Shown one piece after another: positions 5,980 through 20,000 of a DNA stretch of 20,000 nt. Source of the DNA: an uncultured virus (IMG/VR IMGVR_UViG_3300016467_000405). Its lineage: Duplodnaviria; Heunggongvirae; Uroviricota; Caudoviricetes. The DNA lies in the IMG/VR virus record IMGVR_UViG_3300016467_000405. One strand, given 5' to 3'. The position numbers and the translations under genes are program-made. Every line of letters starts with the position of its first letter. Within the stretch, counting starts at the first letter, position 1. The notes under the pieces are model-generated. The model was not told where the DNA came from, searched no databases, and saw only the letters and a program-made list of their open reading frames with translations.

Positions 5980-6109
5980 AGAGACTATCGCTGTGACAGG
6001 CGAATGCAGATGAAAGAGTTCTAGTGTAATGGTCCTGTGTTTTGAGGTTGGGTACTCTGCACCCTCTGTCACCCTTAAAATGCGGGGCCTCCCTACCCTA
6101 GGTGAAAAT

Positions 6110-6655
6110 ATGAGAATCAAACCGATTGATGTTGAGCTGATGCGATCTCTGTTGGAGTACGCACCAGAGCTTGGAGGTTCTTGCTTAAAGTGGCGAGTGG
6201 ATGTGATAGGCGGGAACGGCGGTGTTTGTGTCAAGGCTGGCACTAAGGCCGGATTCTTGGAAGGCGGTGGTTATTGGGGTGTTAGGGTGCAAGGGGAAGC
6301 ATATAAAGCGCATCGATTGGTGTGGGCATTGGTTAAAGGGCGCGATCCAATTGTTGCCATAGACCACACGAATGGAGACTGTAAAGACAATCGCATAGAA
6401 AATTTGCGGATGACTCCAGAAGGGCAGAAGCAAAACATGCAAAACGCACGCAACCAAATTAACAATACTTCTGGGTGTAGAGGTGTGGATTGGAATAAAC
6501 GGACGCAAAAATGGCGCGCAAGGATAAGATCTGGAGGTGTCAGCTATTTTGTTGGTTATTTTGATACTCTCGAAGAAGCCAACGCGGCGTATCTTGAAGC
6601 TAAAGCAGCGCTTCATACGTTCCAACCTGTTCCGAGAAAAACTAATGGTGGATAA
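6110..6655 (+). CDS. Free-standing HNH homing endonuclease with C-terminal AP2 DNA-binding domain
   Basis: AHRLVW, IDHTNGDCKDNRIENLR...QN..N (HNH), NTSGCRGV.W.KRTQKWRARI...VGYFDTLEEA..AY (AP2); ATG 6110 after AGGTG preferred over 6029. Confidence 0.9.
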   Translation: MRIKPIDVELMRSLLEYAPELGGSCLKWRVDVIGGNGGVCVKAGTKAGFLEGGGYWGVRVQGEAYKAHRLVWALVKGRDPIVAIDHTNGDCKDNRIENLRMTPEGQKQNMQNARNQINNTSGCRGVDWNKRTQKWRARIRSGGVSYFVGYFDTLEEANAAYLEAKAALHTFQPVPRKTNGG

Positions 6656-13000: not shown

Positions 13001-13187
13001 CGAGACCTGCAAATGGATCAGGACTAAAGATCTGGTCTGGGATACGCAGTGCAAACATCAAGTAGGGACACCGCGTAAGTGGGAACCCATCGAAGGCATG
13101 GCCTGCATCTGCTGTAAGAAACCTGTGGAGGTGATGAGTGACGCCGGAAGCGAAAGTAAAGAAAGACATCAGGAAAATCCTAGATGA
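12990..13187 (+). CDS. Small Cys-rich hypothetical protein
   Basis: TCKW......WDTQC......C.CC.KP motif. Confidence 0.6.
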   Translation: MMFDETCKWIRTKDLVWDTQCKHQVGTPRKWEPIEGMACICCKKPVEVMSDAGSESKERHQENPR

Positions 13188-13440
13188 GTACGGTGCTTGG
13201 CACTGTATGCCTATGGGTACTGGCTACGGTAGGAGCGGGGTCCCTGATCTGCTTGCTTGTTATCTCGGAAACTTCATTGCCATCGAAGCAAAGGCAGGGG
13301 ACAATAAGCCCACCGCACTGCAAGTGCGAGAACTCGAACGAATCAAAAAAACCGGAGGCTACGCCTTGTTGGTCAACGAGTCCAACATTGATTACCTAAG
13401 GCAACTTTTAGAGAAGATTAGGCAATGCCCACAATCATAA
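13138..13440 (+). CDS. VRR-NUC domain nuclease (putative Holliday junction resolvase)
   Basis: TPEAKVK, GYGRSGVPDL, FIAIEAKA..NKPTALQ...L..I...GG.ALLVNE. Confidence 0.88.
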   Translation: MTPEAKVKKDIRKILDEYGAWHCMPMGTGYGRSGVPDLLACYLGNFIAIEAKAGDNKPTALQVRELERIKKTGGYALLVNESNIDYLRQLLEKIRQCPQS

Positions 13441-15266
13441 CTTGTGATATCGAGTCGTTTTACGACCGGGATTATTCCCTATCCAAACTGGCCACGGAAG
13501 GCTACGTTAACGACAAGCGGTTTGAAGTGATCGGTGTTGGGGCGAAGGTGAATGGAGGAGAGACTCAGACCTTTACGGGCCCCCGTAAGCAGACTGCTGA
13601 ATGGTTGGACCGATTCAATTGGGAGGACGCCTATGTCCTCTGCCATAACACCCTGTTCGATGCCACGATTCTTTCGTGGAAGTTTGGAATCAAACCCAAG
13701 ATGTGGCTGGACACCCTGTCCATGGCCCGCGCTCTGCACGGTACGGAAGTCGGCGGATCGCTCAAGGCTCTGGCTGAATACTATGGTGTCGGTGAAAAAG
13801 GCACCGAGGTAATGAACGCGCTGGGTAAGCGCCGCATGCAGTTCAGGGAACCCGAGCTCGAAGCGTACATGCTGTACTGCAAGAATGACGTAGACCTGAC
13901 CTACGAGATATTTAAACGGATGGCCCCCGCCTTTAATAAGGAGGAGATTAAGTTAATCGATATGACGATTCGCATGCATACGGAACCTAAGATGCTGCTG
14001 GATCAACAGGTGTTGAAGGACCACCTGTACAACGTGCGGGCGAAGAAGGAAGAGTTGATGGCGAAGATCGCCACGGATAAATCCGAGCTCATGTCCAATC
14101 CGAAGTTCGCCGAGGCTCTTATAGCACTAGGTGTTACACCTCCGATGAAGACTTCTCTGCGCACGGGTAAGGAGACTTATGCCTTTGCCAAGTCGGATGA
14201 GGAAATGAAGGCATTACTGGAACACCCGAACCCTGAGGTGCAAGCTCTGGTGGCGGCAAGGATCGGTGTGAAGTCTACGCTGGAAGAGACCCGCACTCAG
14301 CGGTTCATTGATATGGCTGACAGGTTCGGCAAGCTCCCGGTTCCTCTCAAGTACTATGGCGCGATGACAGGGCGTTGGGCGGCTACGGATGGAACCAATC
14401 TTCAGAATATTCCCAGAGGTTCCGTACTCAAGGAAGCGATCACTGCACCCGAAGGGTGGAAGATTGTCGGCGCCGACTTGTCCAATATCGAACTTCGTGT
14501 GGGCCTGTACTTTGCAGGTCAGATGGACAAGCTGAATCTTCTGGCTAATGGTGTGGATCTTTATAAAGACTTCGCATCTGCTGTGTTCGGTGTGGGGTAT
14601 GACGAGGTGGACGATGATCAAAGATTTATCGGGAAAACCTCGCAGTTGAGCCTTATTTACGGTACGGGGCCCGGCAAGCTTCGGAACGCAATCAAGATGA
14701 TGTCAGGTAAAGACATCGGTGAGGCGGAAGCCAAGCGTATCGTAGACATCTACCGTAGGGACTACTCGCGTGTGAAGGAGTCTTGGTATGAGGGCGATAA
14801 GATGCTCTACGCCATGCGGGATAATACAGCCGCTGTGTTTGGCGAAGCGATCCCCCTGCCTGTACTGGGTGCTGCTGGCATTCAGCTTCCTTCAGGTTTG
14901 TTCCTTAAATACCCGGATCTCAAGCAGCATGTGAATGAGATGCAGAGGAAAGAGTGGAGCTACGCGCAGCGCAAGGAGAGGGTGCGTATCCATGGCCCCA
15001 AGTGTTTTCAGAACACGATTCAGGCGTTGGCTCGGTGCGTAATGGGTGAGTCGATGGTGCGTATTGCCAAGAGACTGCCTGTAGCTTTAACAATTCACGA
15101 TGCGGTGTACTGCATGGTGCCGGATCAGATTGTGGACAAAGCTAAGAAGTTCATCGTACAGGAGCTGAAGCGCCCACCCGAGTGGGCCACTGAACTACCT
15201 CTCGACGCCGAGGTAGGAGCGGGGCAAAGCCTTGCATTCAAGATGAAGAAACTGGAGGGAGTATGA
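13425..15266 (+). CDS. polA: Family A DNA polymerase with 3'-5' exonuclease domain
   Basis: ExoI DIES, ExoII HNTLFD, ExoIII YCKND; TGRW, NLQN, motif A DLSNIELR, motif B RFIGKTSQLSLIYG, motif C IHDA. Confidence 0.93.
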   Translation: MPTIITCDIESFYDRDYSLSKLATEGYVNDKRFEVIGVGAKVNGGETQTFTGPRKQTAEWLDRFNWEDAYVLCHNTLFDATILSWKFGIKPKMWLDTLSMARALHGTEVGGSLKALAEYYGVGEKGTEVMNALGKRRMQFREPELEAYMLYCKNDVDLTYEIFKRMAPAFNKEEIKLIDMTIRMHTEPKMLLDQQVLKDHLYNVRAKKEELMAKIATDKSELMSNPKFAEALIALGVTPPMKTSLRTGKETYAFAKSDEEMKALLEHPNPEVQALVAARIGVKSTLEETRTQRFIDMADRFGKLPVPLKYYGAMTGRWAATDGTNLQNIPRGSVLKEAITAPEGWKIVGADLSNIELRVGLYFAGQMDKLNLLANGVDLYKDFASAVFGVGYDEVDDDQRFIGKTSQLSLIYGTGPGKLRNAIKMMSGKDIGEAEAKRIVDIYRRDYSRVKESWYEGDKMLYAMRDNTAAVFGEAIPLPVLGAAGIQLPSGLFLKYPDLKQHVNEMQRKEWSYAQRKERVRIHGPKCFQNTIQALARCVMGESMVRIAKRLPVALTIHDAVYCMVPDQIVDKAKKFIVQELKRPPEWATELPLDAEVGAGQSLAFKMKKLEGV

Positions 15267-16953: not shown

Positions 16954-19458
16954 ATGGAGATCGTACAAAACCGTGCGGTGCTCGTGAACACGCGCAAACC
17001 ACACTTGATAACAGAAGTAGTTGAGAAGGCTACCGTAGTCAAACAAGTCCCGCTGCCCAATGGGCAGGTGGGATCTACCGTAGCTGTGCCATGGACTTTG
17101 CGGCATACCAAGATCCTGCATAACCTTGGGTTCAAGAAGGTACCTTCCCCGATCACGGGAAAGTATGAATGGCCGGGTCTTTATAAACCTTTCTCACATC
17201 AACGGGACACGGCAGCGTTCCTTACGCTCAACCCTAGGGCCTTCTGCTTGAATGATATGGGCACTGGCAAAACTTGCTCTGTTGCATGGGCTGCTGACTA
17301 TCTGATGAACCTTGGCATCATCAAGCGCGTGCTGATCGTAGCCCCCCTGTCCATTCTGGACTGTGCGTGGAGGGCGGACCTTTTCAAAACGCTGATGCAC
17401 CGTAGGGTAGATATCGCCCACGGTAGCGCCGCCAAGCGCCGTGCAGTCATTGCTTCTGATGCGGAGTTTGTTGCCATCAACTATGACGGACTCGAGATCG
17501 TCCACAAAGAAATCATGGAAGGTGGGTTCGACCTCATCGTGTGTGATGAAGCTTCCGCATTAAAGAACCAACAGACCAAGCGTTGGAAGCTGATGAACCA
17601 GCTCCTGCGTCCTGAAACATGGCTGTGGCTCCTGACAGGTACGCCTGCGGCGCAGTCTCCTGATGAAGCTTATGGTCTGGCTAGGCTGGTCAACCCGCAA
17701 GGTGTGCCGAGGTTCTACGGGTCATTCCGTGATCAGGTCATGCTGAAGGTTTCACAGTTTCGATATGTTCCACGGCCCGAAGCTCAGAGCATCGTGCATA
17801 AAGCCTTGCAACCTGCGATCCGTTTCACCAAAGAAGAGTGTCTTGATCTTCCCGAGATGACCTATGTGGATCGGGTTGTTCCGCTGACCACGCAGCAAGC
17901 CAAGTACTATGAGAAGCTAAAGGCACAGTTGTTGATTCAAGCTGCGGGTGAAGAGATAAGCGCAATCAATGCAGCGGTTGAAATGAACAAGCTCCTGCAA
18001 GTGTCTTGTATAGCGTATAATACACCCGTACTCACGGACGCTGGTTGGGTTCCAATCCAAGATGTAATCGCTACCCATAAAGTATGGGACGGCGAAGACT
18101 GGGTAACTCAGGATGGGGCGGTTTTTCGTGGGGTTAAGGAAGTAGAGAAATGCTGGGGGGTTTCCATGACGGAAGATCACTTGGTGCTTACTACTGATGG
18201 GTGGATAGAAGCAGGGGATATCACAGATGGCGAATCCGGCATTGAATTTACTAGGGCAAAAGTTCGGTTACCTGACTGTTATAGCAAGAGCTGGGACTAC
18301 GGTTGGTATTTCGACCCAATGCGCAACATGGCTGTGCCAATGCGATTGCGGGAACCAAATTGTGCGGCGCAGTCAGTATTTGAGGGCGAAGCATCGAAAG
18401 CATCCGAGGAGCTGCGGGTGTCATCATGGCAACGAGACCCACAGGATGAGCAAAAGTCGTGTGTATTCCAATTATCACAATATGCTGGCACGGTGCTTAG
18501 ATCCGCAAGACAAAAATTATCGAAACTACGGAGCGCGGGGAATAACTGTCTGCGAGCGGTGGAAAGAATCGTTTACGAATTTTTGGGGCGACATGGGGCC
18601 GACACATCAACATGGGCTCACATTAGACAGAATAGACAACGATGGTCCGTATTCCCCAGAGAATTGCAGGTGGGCTACCCCGACTCAACAGGGGCGCAAT
18701 ACACGAGGGAACGTACTTATAGCTACACCGAAAGGTCCTATGCCAATAGCACAAGCAGCGGAAGAGTATGGATTGAAGAAAGGGACCCTATTTCGGCGGT
18801 TGAAAGCGGGATGGCCCGTAGATTTGGCTCTGACGCTCCCCGTAGACAAAAGCAAAAAACTTACGACCTACTTAACAGTGGACCCCGGTCTCGGTTTGTT
18901 GTAATAGGAAGTGAAGGGCCTCTCATCGTCCATAATTGCGGAGCTGTTTATGCAGACAGTGGCGCCGTAGTCGAGTTCGACTGTACGAACCGCTTGAATG
19001 AATTGAAAGAGATCATCGAGCAGGCCAGCCATAAGACACTCGTCTTTGCTAACTTCACACACAGCATTGACACTATTCAGGCGTTTTTATCTAAACACGG
19101 TATCACTAATGACACGATCAACGGCAGTGTGCCGTTGAAAAGGCGCTCAGAACTGGTAGAGCGATTCCAAAAGACCAATGACATTCAAGTGCTGGTCATT
19201 CAACCTCAAGCCGCTTCGCATGGGATCACTCTGCATGCAGCCAACACTGTCATCTGGTGGAGCCCTATACCTAGCCTTGAATACTACCTGCAGGCCAACG
19301 CTCGTGTGCATCGAGCCGGACAAAAGAACCCCTGCACCGTAGTCCACCTCATGGGATCTGGCGTAGAGAAGCAGATGTACAAGCGCCTTCAAGGAAAGAA
19401 GGATGATCAAGAGAGTCTTCTGGCCATGTATAAAATTGTGATCGGTATACAAAAATGA
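16954..19458 (+). CDS. SNF2-family (SF2) DNA helicase precursor containing an intein (834 aa; ~524 aa after splicing)
   Basis: AAGGAG RBS; PFSHQ, motif I DMGTGKT, Ia LIVAPLS, II DEAS, III LTGTP, V SHGITLHAA, VI QANARVHRAGQ. Confidence 0.93.
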   Translation: MEIVQNRAVLVNTRKPHLITEVVEKATVVKQVPLPNGQVGSTVAVPWTLRHTKILHNLGFKKVPSPITGKYEWPGLYKPFSHQRDTAAFLTLNPRAFCLNDMGTGKTCSVAWAADYLMNLGIIKRVLIVAPLSILDCAWRADLFKTLMHRRVDIAHGSAAKRRAVIASDAEFVAINYDGLEIVHKEIMEGGFDLIVCDEASALKNQQTKRWKLMNQLLRPETWLWLLTGTPAAQSPDEAYGLARLVNPQGVPRFYGSFRDQVMLKVSQFRYVPRPEAQSIVHKALQPAIRFTKEECLDLPEMTYVDRVVPLTTQQAKYYEKLKAQLLIQAAGEEISAINAAVEMNKLLQVSCIAYNTPVLTDAGWVPIQDVIATHKVWDGEDWVTQDGAVFRGVKEVEKCWGVSMTEDHLVLTTDGWIEAGDITDGESGIEFTRAKVRLPDCYSKSWDYGWYFDPMRNMAVPMRLREPNCAAQSVFEGEASKASEELRVSSWQRDPQDEQKSCVFQLSQYAGTVLRSARQKLSKLRSAGNNCLRAVERIVYEFLGRHGADTSTWAHIRQNRQRWSVFPRELQVGYPDSTGAQYTRERTYSYTERSYANSTSSGRVWIEERDPISAVESGMARRFGSDAPRRQKQKTYDLLNSGPRSRFVVIGSEGPLIVHNCGAVYADSGAVVEFDCTNRLNELKEIIEQASHKTLVFANFTHSIDTIQAFLSKHGITNDTINGSVPLKRRSELVERFQKTNDIQVLVIQPQAASHGITLHAANTVIWWSPIPSLEYYLQANARVHRAGQKNPCTVVHLMGSGVEKQMYKRLQGKKDDQESLLAMYKIVIGIQK
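18007..18936 (+). mobile_element. Class 1 intein (310 aa, helicase residues 352-661)
   Basis: Block A CIAYNTPVLTDAGWVPIQDV, block B MTEDHLVLT (TxxH), block F KTYDLLNSGPRSRFVV, block G LIVHN followed by +1 Cys. Removal restores NKLLQVS|CGAVY. Confidence 0.92.
18227..18904 (+). CDS. HNH-type homing endonuclease overprinted in the +1 frame inside the intein
   Basis: AGGGGA SD at 18213-18218, ATG 18227, TAA 18902-18904; LLGQKFGYLTV, WLCQCDCG, SCGC, NM..RC, YGARGITVCERW, F..DMG, TLDRIDNDGPYSPENCRWAT..QQ.RN, C-terminal HTH-like AEEYGLKKGTLFRRLKAGW. Confidence 0.9.
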   Translation: MANPALNLLGQKFGYLTVIARAGTTVGISTQCATWLCQCDCGNQIVRRSQYLRAKHRKHPRSCGCHHGNETHRMSKSRVYSNYHNMLARCLDPQDKNYRNYGARGITVCERWKESFTNFWGDMGPTHQHGLTLDRIDNDGPYSPENCRWATPTQQGRNTRGNVLIATPKGPMPIAQAAEEYGLKKGTLFRRLKAGWPVDLALTLPVDKSKKLTTYLTVDPGLGLL

Positions 19459-20000
19459 AATATCTAAGTGTGTGTTCGGGAATAGAAGCAGCAACAGTCG
19501 CTTGGCATGAGCTTGGTTGGGAGGCTGTTGGGTTTTCAGAGATTGAACCGTTTCCATCGGCGGTTCTAAAACATCATTATCCAAACGTCACCAATTTGGG
19601 TGACATGACTAAATATAAGGAGTGGAACATTGGAACAGAAAGATTGGATATCCTCGTTGGAGGAACACCCTGCCAATCATTCTCAGTCGCAGGACTCAGA
19701 AAAGGATTGGATGACCCGCGCGGTAACTTGGCCCTCACCTATTGCGGAATTCTTGACCACTTTCGACCAACTTGGTTCGTCTGGGAAAACGTCCCCGGCG
19801 TCCTGTCATCAAGCGGAGGACGGGATTTTGGTTCCTTCCTCGGGGCGGTGGCAGAACTCGGGTATGGGTTCGCATACAGAGTGCTGGACGCTCAGTTCTT
19901 CGGAGTGGCCCAAAGACGCCGCCGTGTGTTCGTTGTCGGATACCTTGGAGACTAGAGACCTCCCGCAGCGGTTCTTTTGGGATACTGCGCCGCGCAGAGA
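19455..20000 (+). pseudogene. C5 cytosine DNA methyltransferase, N-terminal part, interrupted by TAG at 19953-19955
   Basis: Motif I YLSVCSGIEA, II FSEIE, IV GGTPCQSFS, VI WENVPG, VIII QRRRRVF; stops at 166 aa before the TRD and motifs IX/X; homologous-looking RPPAAVL continues after the TAG. Confidence 0.7.

Follow-up and report, generated by a model that had tools for sequence, protein, structure and literature searches.

A class-1 intein interrupts the SNF2-family helicase gene of an uncultured virus of the Caudoviricetes (IMG/VR record IMGVR_UViG_3300016467_000405), and the nuclease that would make this intein mobile is very probably encoded outside the intein polypeptide, by a separate gene read in the +1 frame from the DNA of the intein's own middle. 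The stretch analysed, here called ‘the window’, is 20,000 nucleotides (nt) long, and coordinates are window positions on the + strand unless another locus is named. A first-pass annotation, made from the sequence alone, had proposed the same core reading: an intein, an overprinted separate nuclease gene and a stop-free spacer. That reading is supported by recurrence of the layout in 72 of 86 loci, by frame-specific selection, by a Shine-Dalgarno (SD) signal and by the predicted Hint fold of the intein.

A class-1 intein within a helicase precursor

The helicase precursor is read from an open reading frame (ORF) of 834 amino acids (aa), at 16954–19458 with the stop codon included, and comprises an N-extein of 351 aa, an intein of 310 aa and a C-extein of 173 aa. 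It matches the Pfam domains SNF2-rel_dom (residues 100–335) and Helicase_C (residues 681–789) and, in PHROGs, the DNA helicase family phrog_62 (E 1e-103). The intein (18007–18936), in the helicase frame and inserted at LLQVS/C...HN/CGAVY, has C1 at 18007–18009, the block B motif T55-E-D-H58 at 18169–18180, block F (TYDLLNSGPRSRFVV) at 18859–18903 and the C-terminal H309-N310 at 18931–18936; the residue that follows, the +1 extein Cys (18937–18939), is the nucleophile of the last splicing steps. The first-pass annotation had described this frame as open from 16954 to 19458 with all splicing blocks present, and every coordinate that it gave proved correct when set against the ORF list and the sequence.

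Conservation and modelling divide the intein into two lobes and a spacer. Across 57 inteins, T55, H58, G13, D28, G29 and W66 are invariant in the N lobe, with C1 kept in at least 90%, and D287, N290, G292, P293, R294, R296, F297, V298, V308, H309 and N310 are invariant in the C lobe. In a model built with 57 aligned relatives, the N-terminal Hint lobe (18007–18291; residues 1 to ~95, with C1 and block B T55xxH58) has a predicted local distance difference test score (pLDDT) of 91–97, apart from one block at 75, and the C-terminal Hint lobe (18847–18936; residues 281–310, with block F and a block G ending in H309-N310) one of 95–96. The helicase-frame spacer between them (18292–18846; residues 96–280) contains no stops and no conserved protein sequence; its block-mean pLDDT is 37–59, which between two confident lobes suggests that the middle of the helicase frame is a disordered linker. 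Some 200 aa of motif-less middle had been noted at first pass, and the spacer fits that description, being predicted to be disordered and poorly conserved, with an apparent ratio of non-synonymous to synonymous substitution rates (dN/dS) in the helicase frame of 0.84–2.15 (see below). A functional domain within the spacer was considered and rejected on the same grounds: the disordered model, a mean identity of 29.9% and the helicase-frame dN/dS.

The best structural match to the intein model was the Mtu RecA mini-intein 3ifj (Z 15.0, root-mean-square deviation (rmsd) 2.5 Å, 114 residues aligned), and 73 of the 88 chains compared reached Z≥8; of those listed, almost every one is an intein or a Hint domain. 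An intein profile also matched the solved inteins NEQ068 and PI-MtuI at E ~2e-5. A Pfam scan of both frames detected neither Hint nor HNH, and with the intein NCBIfam gave a match to the intein N-terminal family TIGR01445 that fell below the cut-off, and none higher. Profile searches for Hint and HNH, suggested at first pass as a check, therefore gave a divided answer: Pfam was negative for both frames, the intein was recovered through the solved-intein profile and the fold, and the HNH label comes from PHROGs. With C1, a block B TxxH, a C-terminal His-Asn followed by Cys, a Hint fold and a precise in-frame insert, 18007–18936 is on its sequence and modelled fold a real class-1 intein, predicted to be capable of splicing. 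A fractured gene or split intein, for which two ORFs would be expected, was rejected: a single 834-codon ORF runs continuously through host gene and intein.

A nuclease gene nested in the +1 frame

Over the middle of the intein, in the +1 frame relative to the helicase, lies an ORF of 225 aa (18227–18904; 678 nt) whose product is HNH-labelled and His-Me-finger-like. The SD-like sequence AGGGGA (18213–18218) stands 8 nt upstream of its ATG and is predicted to pair with the anti-SD sequence at −6.5 kcal/mol. The protein is a member of a large phage family. In PHROGs it matched phrog_374 (E 7.7e-59) and phrog_3377 (E 1.2e-53), both labelled HNH endonuclease, and BFVD gave 156 matches at E≤0.001, among them several that depositors had named HNH or homing endonuclease. 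In a confident model (pLDDT 84.9), a Cys4 beta domain forms the N-terminal part, a putative beta-beta-alpha-metal domain the centre and a helix-turn-helix (HTH) the C-terminal part.

The nested ORF, its AGGGGA and ATG, the 678 nt of dual coding and the 3′ end within block F are all as first described. The 5′ boundary is not: the gene had been placed right after the N-terminal Hint segment, but it starts inside that lobe, at intein residue 74, with the lobe confidently modelled to ~95, so that about 20 codons would be constrained in both frames. In this doubly constrained 5′ zone (18227–18291) the end of the Hint N lobe (..RAKVRLPD..) is laid over the start of the nuclease (..GQKFGYLTV..); both motifs are conserved, and both models are confident there (intein residues 81–90, pLDDT 91; nuclease residues 11–20, pLDDT 93). 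At the 3′ overlap (18859–18904), the invariant intein block F coincides with a disordered nuclease tail (residues 213–225, pLDDT <50) and the stop codon.

Conservation of the two-frame layout

Relatives were retrieved by protein comparison. A DNA-level search of phage records gave a 55-bp match only, and the single intein protein, used as a query against viral contigs, retrieved nothing. By tblastn against phage records, the same DNA matched both frames in APSE phages, four Caulobacter phages and Shewanella phage SFCi1, and more distantly in Vibrio phage 97.13; all of these matches lie within DNA polymerase genes. A helicase-alignment query returned mostly intein-less alleles: by match length, locus L006 was the sole intein carrier among 80 loci, and the longer match in L078 was not an intein-bearing helicase ORF.

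Eighty loci from a metagenome scan with an intein-frame profile, together with the window, L001–L004 and L006, made up a set of 86. A complete full-size intein with an intact nested gene at +1 was found in 72/86, and one further full-size intein, that of Vibrio phage 97.13, had its nested gene at +2; in 0/86 was the nested gene in frame with the intein. Seven of the 86 held a complete mini-intein (four of these with nuclease-gene remnants), and six were cut by a contig end. The nested ORF was intact in all 73 complete full-size loci. Removal of copies ≥97% identical left 55 non-redundant loci, hosted by 22 SNF2 helicases and 26 family-A DNA polymerases, with seven lacking a host assignment.

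Among the 120 best hits of a helicase protein search, the insert was present in 67, exactly absent in 52 and represented by a 156-aa mini version in one. Relatives with the same layout (72/86 at +1), mini-inteins (seven) and intein-less alleles (52), all three of which tblastn had been expected to find, were recovered. Directly after the insert, all intein-bearing homologues have Cys; at that position all intein-less ones have S, A, T or V. The empty junction had been given as KLLQVS/CGAVY; natural intein-less alleles instead read LLQ(V/I)S-(S/A/T/V)-GAVY, none of them S-C-GAVY.

These counts bear directly on an artefactual origin of the layout, in which two compensating indels, near 18227 and 18900, had displaced an ordinary in-frame endonuclease domain. 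We give this explanation virtually no credence. The +1 layout recurs in the 72/86 independently assembled loci, including the isolates APSE-1, Caulobacter GB2A and Shewanella SFCi1, and none is in frame; the probability of an accidental open frame is ~2e-5; and the nested start codon and SD are placed where free-standing homologues begin. Since those free-standing homologues share the same ends, and no in-frame form was found, it is plausible that the element arose when a free-standing gene invaded a mini-intein.

Nested genes of this kind are readily overlooked. None of eight nested proteins (0/8) was present in a 15-billion-protein collection, and only 1/3 annotated phage records lists the gene, bearing out the expectation at first pass that gene callers miss it.

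Some loci departed from the common form. The mini-inteins are ~135–156 aa long; L102 (2001–2468) and L145 (412–852) retain nuclease remnants at both ends, and L116 and L117 (2001–2405) at the 5′ end only. From their sequences, the remnant-bearing mini-inteins appear to derive from the full element by internal deletion. The polymerase intein of Vibrio phage 97.13 (L004, 2501–3355), with its more distant nuclease at +2, ends in His-Asn followed by Ser. A second intein is apparent upstream in L092 (90–3440), where Pfam places PF14890, PF13403 and PF07591 at ORF residues 196–485, and also in helicases of 1,110–1,170 aa, from precomputed Pfam Hint matches in P0015 and P0093 and from length in P0002, P0011 and P0038.

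Open frames and frame-specific selection

To assess chance, the synonymous codons of the nested gene were shuffled with its protein and codon usage kept. The helicase frame was stop-free in 0/20,000 such shuffles, 10.7 stops being expected, and the third frame over the same overlap in the window contains 18 stops. Among the 55 non-redundant loci, which were retrieved via the intein frame, 55/55 are open in the host frame across the overlap, where stops in relatives would have told against the first-pass reading, and the third frame, with 13.5 stops on average, is open in 0/55. All five free-standing homologues examined, from isolate phages, carry stops in the equivalent frame (4, 17, 23, 31 and 39). 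The open helicase frame exceeds chance, as had been argued at first pass.

Selection was compared between frames in eight helicase-group loci, giving 28 non-independent pairs. Substitutions in the overlap fell at nested codon positions 1, 2 and 3 in the numbers 1009, 818 and 2488. The per-frame comparison of dN/dS, proposed in the first-pass annotation, gave 0.06–0.27 for the nested frame where computable and an apparent 0.84–2.15 for the helicase frame over the overlap; the non-overlapped N-terminal Hint part behaves as an ordinary coding region. Between the window and L006, the nested proteins are 77% identical and the intein-frame translations 51%. Across 66 intein-bearing helicases the middle was least like that of the window, with a mean identity of 29.9%, against 54.5% for the N lobe, 64.8% for the C lobe and 56.0% for the exteins. 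This pattern indicates that selection keeps the amino-acid sequence of the nuclease, with the helicase frame over the overlap kept merely stop-free. An overprinted pair of genes is recognised by two frames that stay open more than chance allows, by purifying selection acting on the nested one and by translation signals of its own (described below), and all three are seen here.

Were the nested ORF a decaying, non-functional relic of an endonuclease, with the intein alone of consequence, mini-inteins with gene remnants would be expected, and four exist (L102, L145, L116 and L117). However, each of the 73 complete full-size loci has kept the ORF whole, the dN/dS of the nested frame is low and its product is confidently modelled, and a relic is therefore highly improbable.

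Translation of the nested gene

Start codons of the nested gene in the 55 loci are ATG (46), GTG (7) and TTG (2). Pairing of the 17 preceding bases with the anti-SD sequence reaches −5 kcal/mol or better in 53/55, and does so at 25% of random positions in the same host genes (Mann-Whitney p 1.5e-24). A scan of 17600–19600 found no promoter or terminator, and predicted RNA folding around the nested start was the same as in shuffled sequences (z −0.05).

Both frames overlap on one mRNA, and with no internal promoter found it could be supposed that the nuclease is reached by programmed frameshifting rather than by independent translation, either through a +1 shift near 18220, giving a fusion of helicase N-terminus, Hint N lobe and nuclease, or through a double shift, giving an in-frame nuclease. 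This is improbable: 53/55 loci have kept a start codon preceded by an SD, the nested N-terminus is homologous to the N-terminus of free-standing genes, and the RNA around the start is without unusual structure, although no search for a conserved slippery motif was made. Internal initiation on the helicase mRNA is the simplest reading of these signals, and the nuclease would then be a separate translation product.

We propose that ribosomes reading the helicase frame would yield a precursor of 834 aa, in which the Hint lobes (residues 1 to ~95 and 281–310) would fold around a disordered linker of 185 aa of unconserved sequence and excise the whole 310-aa insert, leaving a helicase of 524 aa. 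Other ribosomes would initiate internally, at AGGGGA and ATG 18227, and produce the nuclease. The nuclease, in turn, would presumably cut intein-less helicase alleles, repair of which would copy in both the intein and its nested gene (homing).

Patchy distribution and mobility

The exteins of the window are 97.1% identical to those of P0005, which has no intein and is the sister of the window's helicase on the extein tree, and these two lie within a clade of 20, 18 of which are intein-less. Likewise, P0004, with an intein, and P0080, without, are 99.2% identical. Identities of inteins and exteins were discordant in both directions: the window and P0002 share 92% in exteins and 51% in inteins, P0004 and P0006 96.7% and 57.8%, and the window and P0003 62% and 72%. 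At least seven intein gains or losses were required on the extein tree, against ~39 with shuffled labels. The intein is thus patchily distributed, with a history incongruent with that of its host gene, as is characteristic of mobile inteins and as would be expected of a homing element. The distribution fits ongoing homing, in which cleavage by the nuclease, and intein-less alleles as its target, would be the driving step.

The nuclease and its putative active site

In the modelled central domain, two strands (132–135 and 147–150) are followed by a helix (152–157). Y142, N146 and N158 are invariant in nested relatives, D/E134 is present in 47/52 and D137 in 44/52; in the N-terminal domain C39 and C41 are invariant, and C63 and C65 occur in 51/52. 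A wide structure comparison (48,161 chains) gave PacI as the best match for residues 73–162, a weak one (Z 5.9, rmsd 2.8 Å, 75 residues, 19% identity). In PacI (PDB 3m7k / 3ldy), an HNH restriction enzyme of the His-Me finger type, the catalytic His is missing and its part is played by a Tyr in a loop (PMC4081073, PMC5714182); Y142 is similarly placed, in the loop that links the two strands. PacI differs in being a restriction enzyme, not a mobile-element nuclease, and in having no sequence match at E≤10: a hidden Markov model search of solved structures with the nuclease, to E≤10, returned I-HmuI (E 0.13) and two HTH proteins, PacI being absent. From the model, a PacI-like active site is a reasonable reading.

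Several observations weigh against an intein mobilised by a separately made homing nuclease. The nested profile aligned with the HNH motif of I-HmuI only weakly (E 0.13), and in that alignment R135, invariant in 52/52, faces the catalytic His of the I-HmuI DH motif. The canonical catalytic His is therefore lacking, and with an invariant Arg at the position of the general-base His, catalysis is not assured. Neither Pfam nor NCBIfam gave an HNH match for the nested protein at E≤1; a Foldseek search of the nuclease model against the PDB gave nothing at E≤0.001, the top hit being the Gme HNH nickase (E 0.94); and even the best wide structural match, PacI, reached only Z 5.9. Beyond the enzyme itself, the loci were retrieved by an intein-frame profile and ranked by tblastn, so that copies with helicase-frame stops may be under-sampled; non-independence of the 28 pairs weakens the selection counts; the extein tree was built with FastTree and carries local supports only, no bootstraps; and, with no internal promoter-like site in the scanned region, the nested gene depends on the helicase transcript.

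The protein is best called ‘HNH-labelled’, not a canonical HNH enzyme. Of the ‘intact 225-aa HNH endonuclease’ of the first-pass annotation, the intact ORF stands, the family name is upheld by PHROGs and not by Pfam or NCBIfam, and a canonical catalytic His is absent.

These features raise the question of whether the nested protein, though under selection, has a role other than homing, either as an inactive DNA-binding protein or as a nuclease with another task (for example, excluding competing phages) sheltered within the intein. The invariant R135 at the catalytic His position of I-HmuI and the C-terminal HTH would suit such a role, and a survey of His-Me fingers judges that nuclease function has probably been lost in two groups that have neither the His nor a Tyr equivalent to it (PMC5714182). 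Against this, Tyr142 is invariant and placed in the inter-strand loop as in PacI; conservation extends to D/E134, N146 and N158; some mini-inteins have lost the gene, as would happen in a homing cycle; and the intein and nested gene move together, discordantly with the exteins, which needs some mobility function. A role other than homing is therefore unlikely, but less so than a frameshift or a relic, and a homing nuclease remains the preferred reading.

A more specific history can be offered only tentatively, and we hold it to be doubtful as a whole: PacI-like His-Me phage homing nucleases may form a large, uncharacterised family that includes the nested protein, with the invariant Arg in place of His and chemistry based on Y142; a single ancestral invasion of a mini-intein at +1 may have founded the composite element, which would then have jumped between PolA and SNF2 hosts without a change of phase; and its 20 or so 5′ codons would be doubly constrained.

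Relation to known systems

Inteins with an out-of-frame endonuclease have already been published, and the window is a further, widespread example of that layout. The closest relative is P45/P46 of Hamiltonella phage APSE-1 (NC_000935), with an intein of the same family (29.6% identity over 310 aa) and a nuclease of the same family (41.6%) that is likewise encoded at +1 and at the matching site between the splicing blocks; there, however, the host is a family-A DNA polymerase, and here an SNF2 helicase. The APSE-1 GenBank record has P46, ‘HNH endonuclease’, nested in P45, ‘DNA polymerase’, and lists the last 140 of 216 codons. The APSE-1 intein has been cited as a phage intein (PMC549080) and is reported to be variably lost (PMC7313666). 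A literature search found no paper on the P45/P46 overlap, or on the nested nuclease family inside inteins.

Gosselin, Arsenault and Gogarten (bioRxiv 10.1101/2025.01.02.630785) describe actinophage inteins whose endonucleases lie on the opposite strand or, when endonuclease VII-like, in another frame of the same strand, and they propose invasion by free-standing genes, with evidence of continuing transfer. The latter inteins share with the present one a same-strand, out-of-frame nuclease between the splicing blocks of a contiguous intein, but their nucleases are endonuclease VII-like and in ‘frame 3’, with hosts such as the terminase large subunit, whereas here the nuclease is of another family, at +1, in SNF2 and PolA hosts. 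Phillips, DeSimone and Gogarten (bioRxiv 10.64898/2026.09.14.751524) report an out-of-frame LAGLIDADG endonuclease in a cyanobacterial dnaX intein, crediting Gorbalenya 1998 with the first proposal of an out-of-frame intein endonuclease. In that system, too, the overlapping endonuclease has a low dN/dS and the extein frame an apparently raised one, and mini-inteins, empty alleles and full inteins coexist; it differs in its LAGLIDADG nuclease, its +2 ORF and its cellular host gene.

Two other arrangements are more distantly comparable. In fractured genes (Dassa et al. 2009, PMC2677866) a free-standing endonuclease gene stands at the point of an intein where endonucleases insert, its end overlapping the downstream intein part, but host and intein are divided between two ORFs and joined by trans-splicing, unlike the open frame and contiguous intein seen here. 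The ShiLan-domain insertion in a phage methylase (Arsenault et al. 2025, PMC11855218) is likewise a stop-free insert that hides an out-of-frame HNH gene; it is described as being without a splicing domain or detectable ribosome-binding site, whereas the present element has a full Hint domain and a conserved SD.

Hidden out-of-frame intein endonucleases are, then, not confined to a few actinophages or to cyanobacterial dnaX: in environmental and isolate phages alike, a single family occupies at least 55 non-redundant loci, spread over two replication genes. In annotation, such inteins resemble endonuclease-free inteins with long linkers. For intein evolution, the layout supports a splicing domain that came first and an endonuclease gene that arrived later. 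The frame-specific pattern of selection offers a clean test for other overlapping genes, and the unusual active-site make-up of the nuclease provides a testable lead in enzymology.

Other genes in the window

The phage's own family-A DNA polymerase (13425–15263; 613 aa) is without an intein, though PolA is the other host of this intein family. Just upstream, and overlapping the polymerase start, an ORF of 100 aa (13138–13437) has no Pfam match; it matches positions 351–445 of phrog_93, ‘endonuclease’, and the N-terminus of the helicase intein matches positions 3–52 of the same family. Downstream of the helicase, within 19455–20000, a C5 cytosine methylase ORF covers PF00145 profile positions 1–163 of 324 and stops at 19955. 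It is overlapped by a +1-frame ORF running from 19630 to the window end, which matches phrog_16143, DNA methyltransferase (E 1.3e-7). The overlap may reflect a frameshift, or else a second case of two-frame coding, and the window ends within the region. Another endonuclease family is represented at 6029–6652 by a free-standing gene of the HNH_3 + AP2 type (phrog_99, E 1e-54), so that the phage carries at least two endonuclease-type genes in the window.

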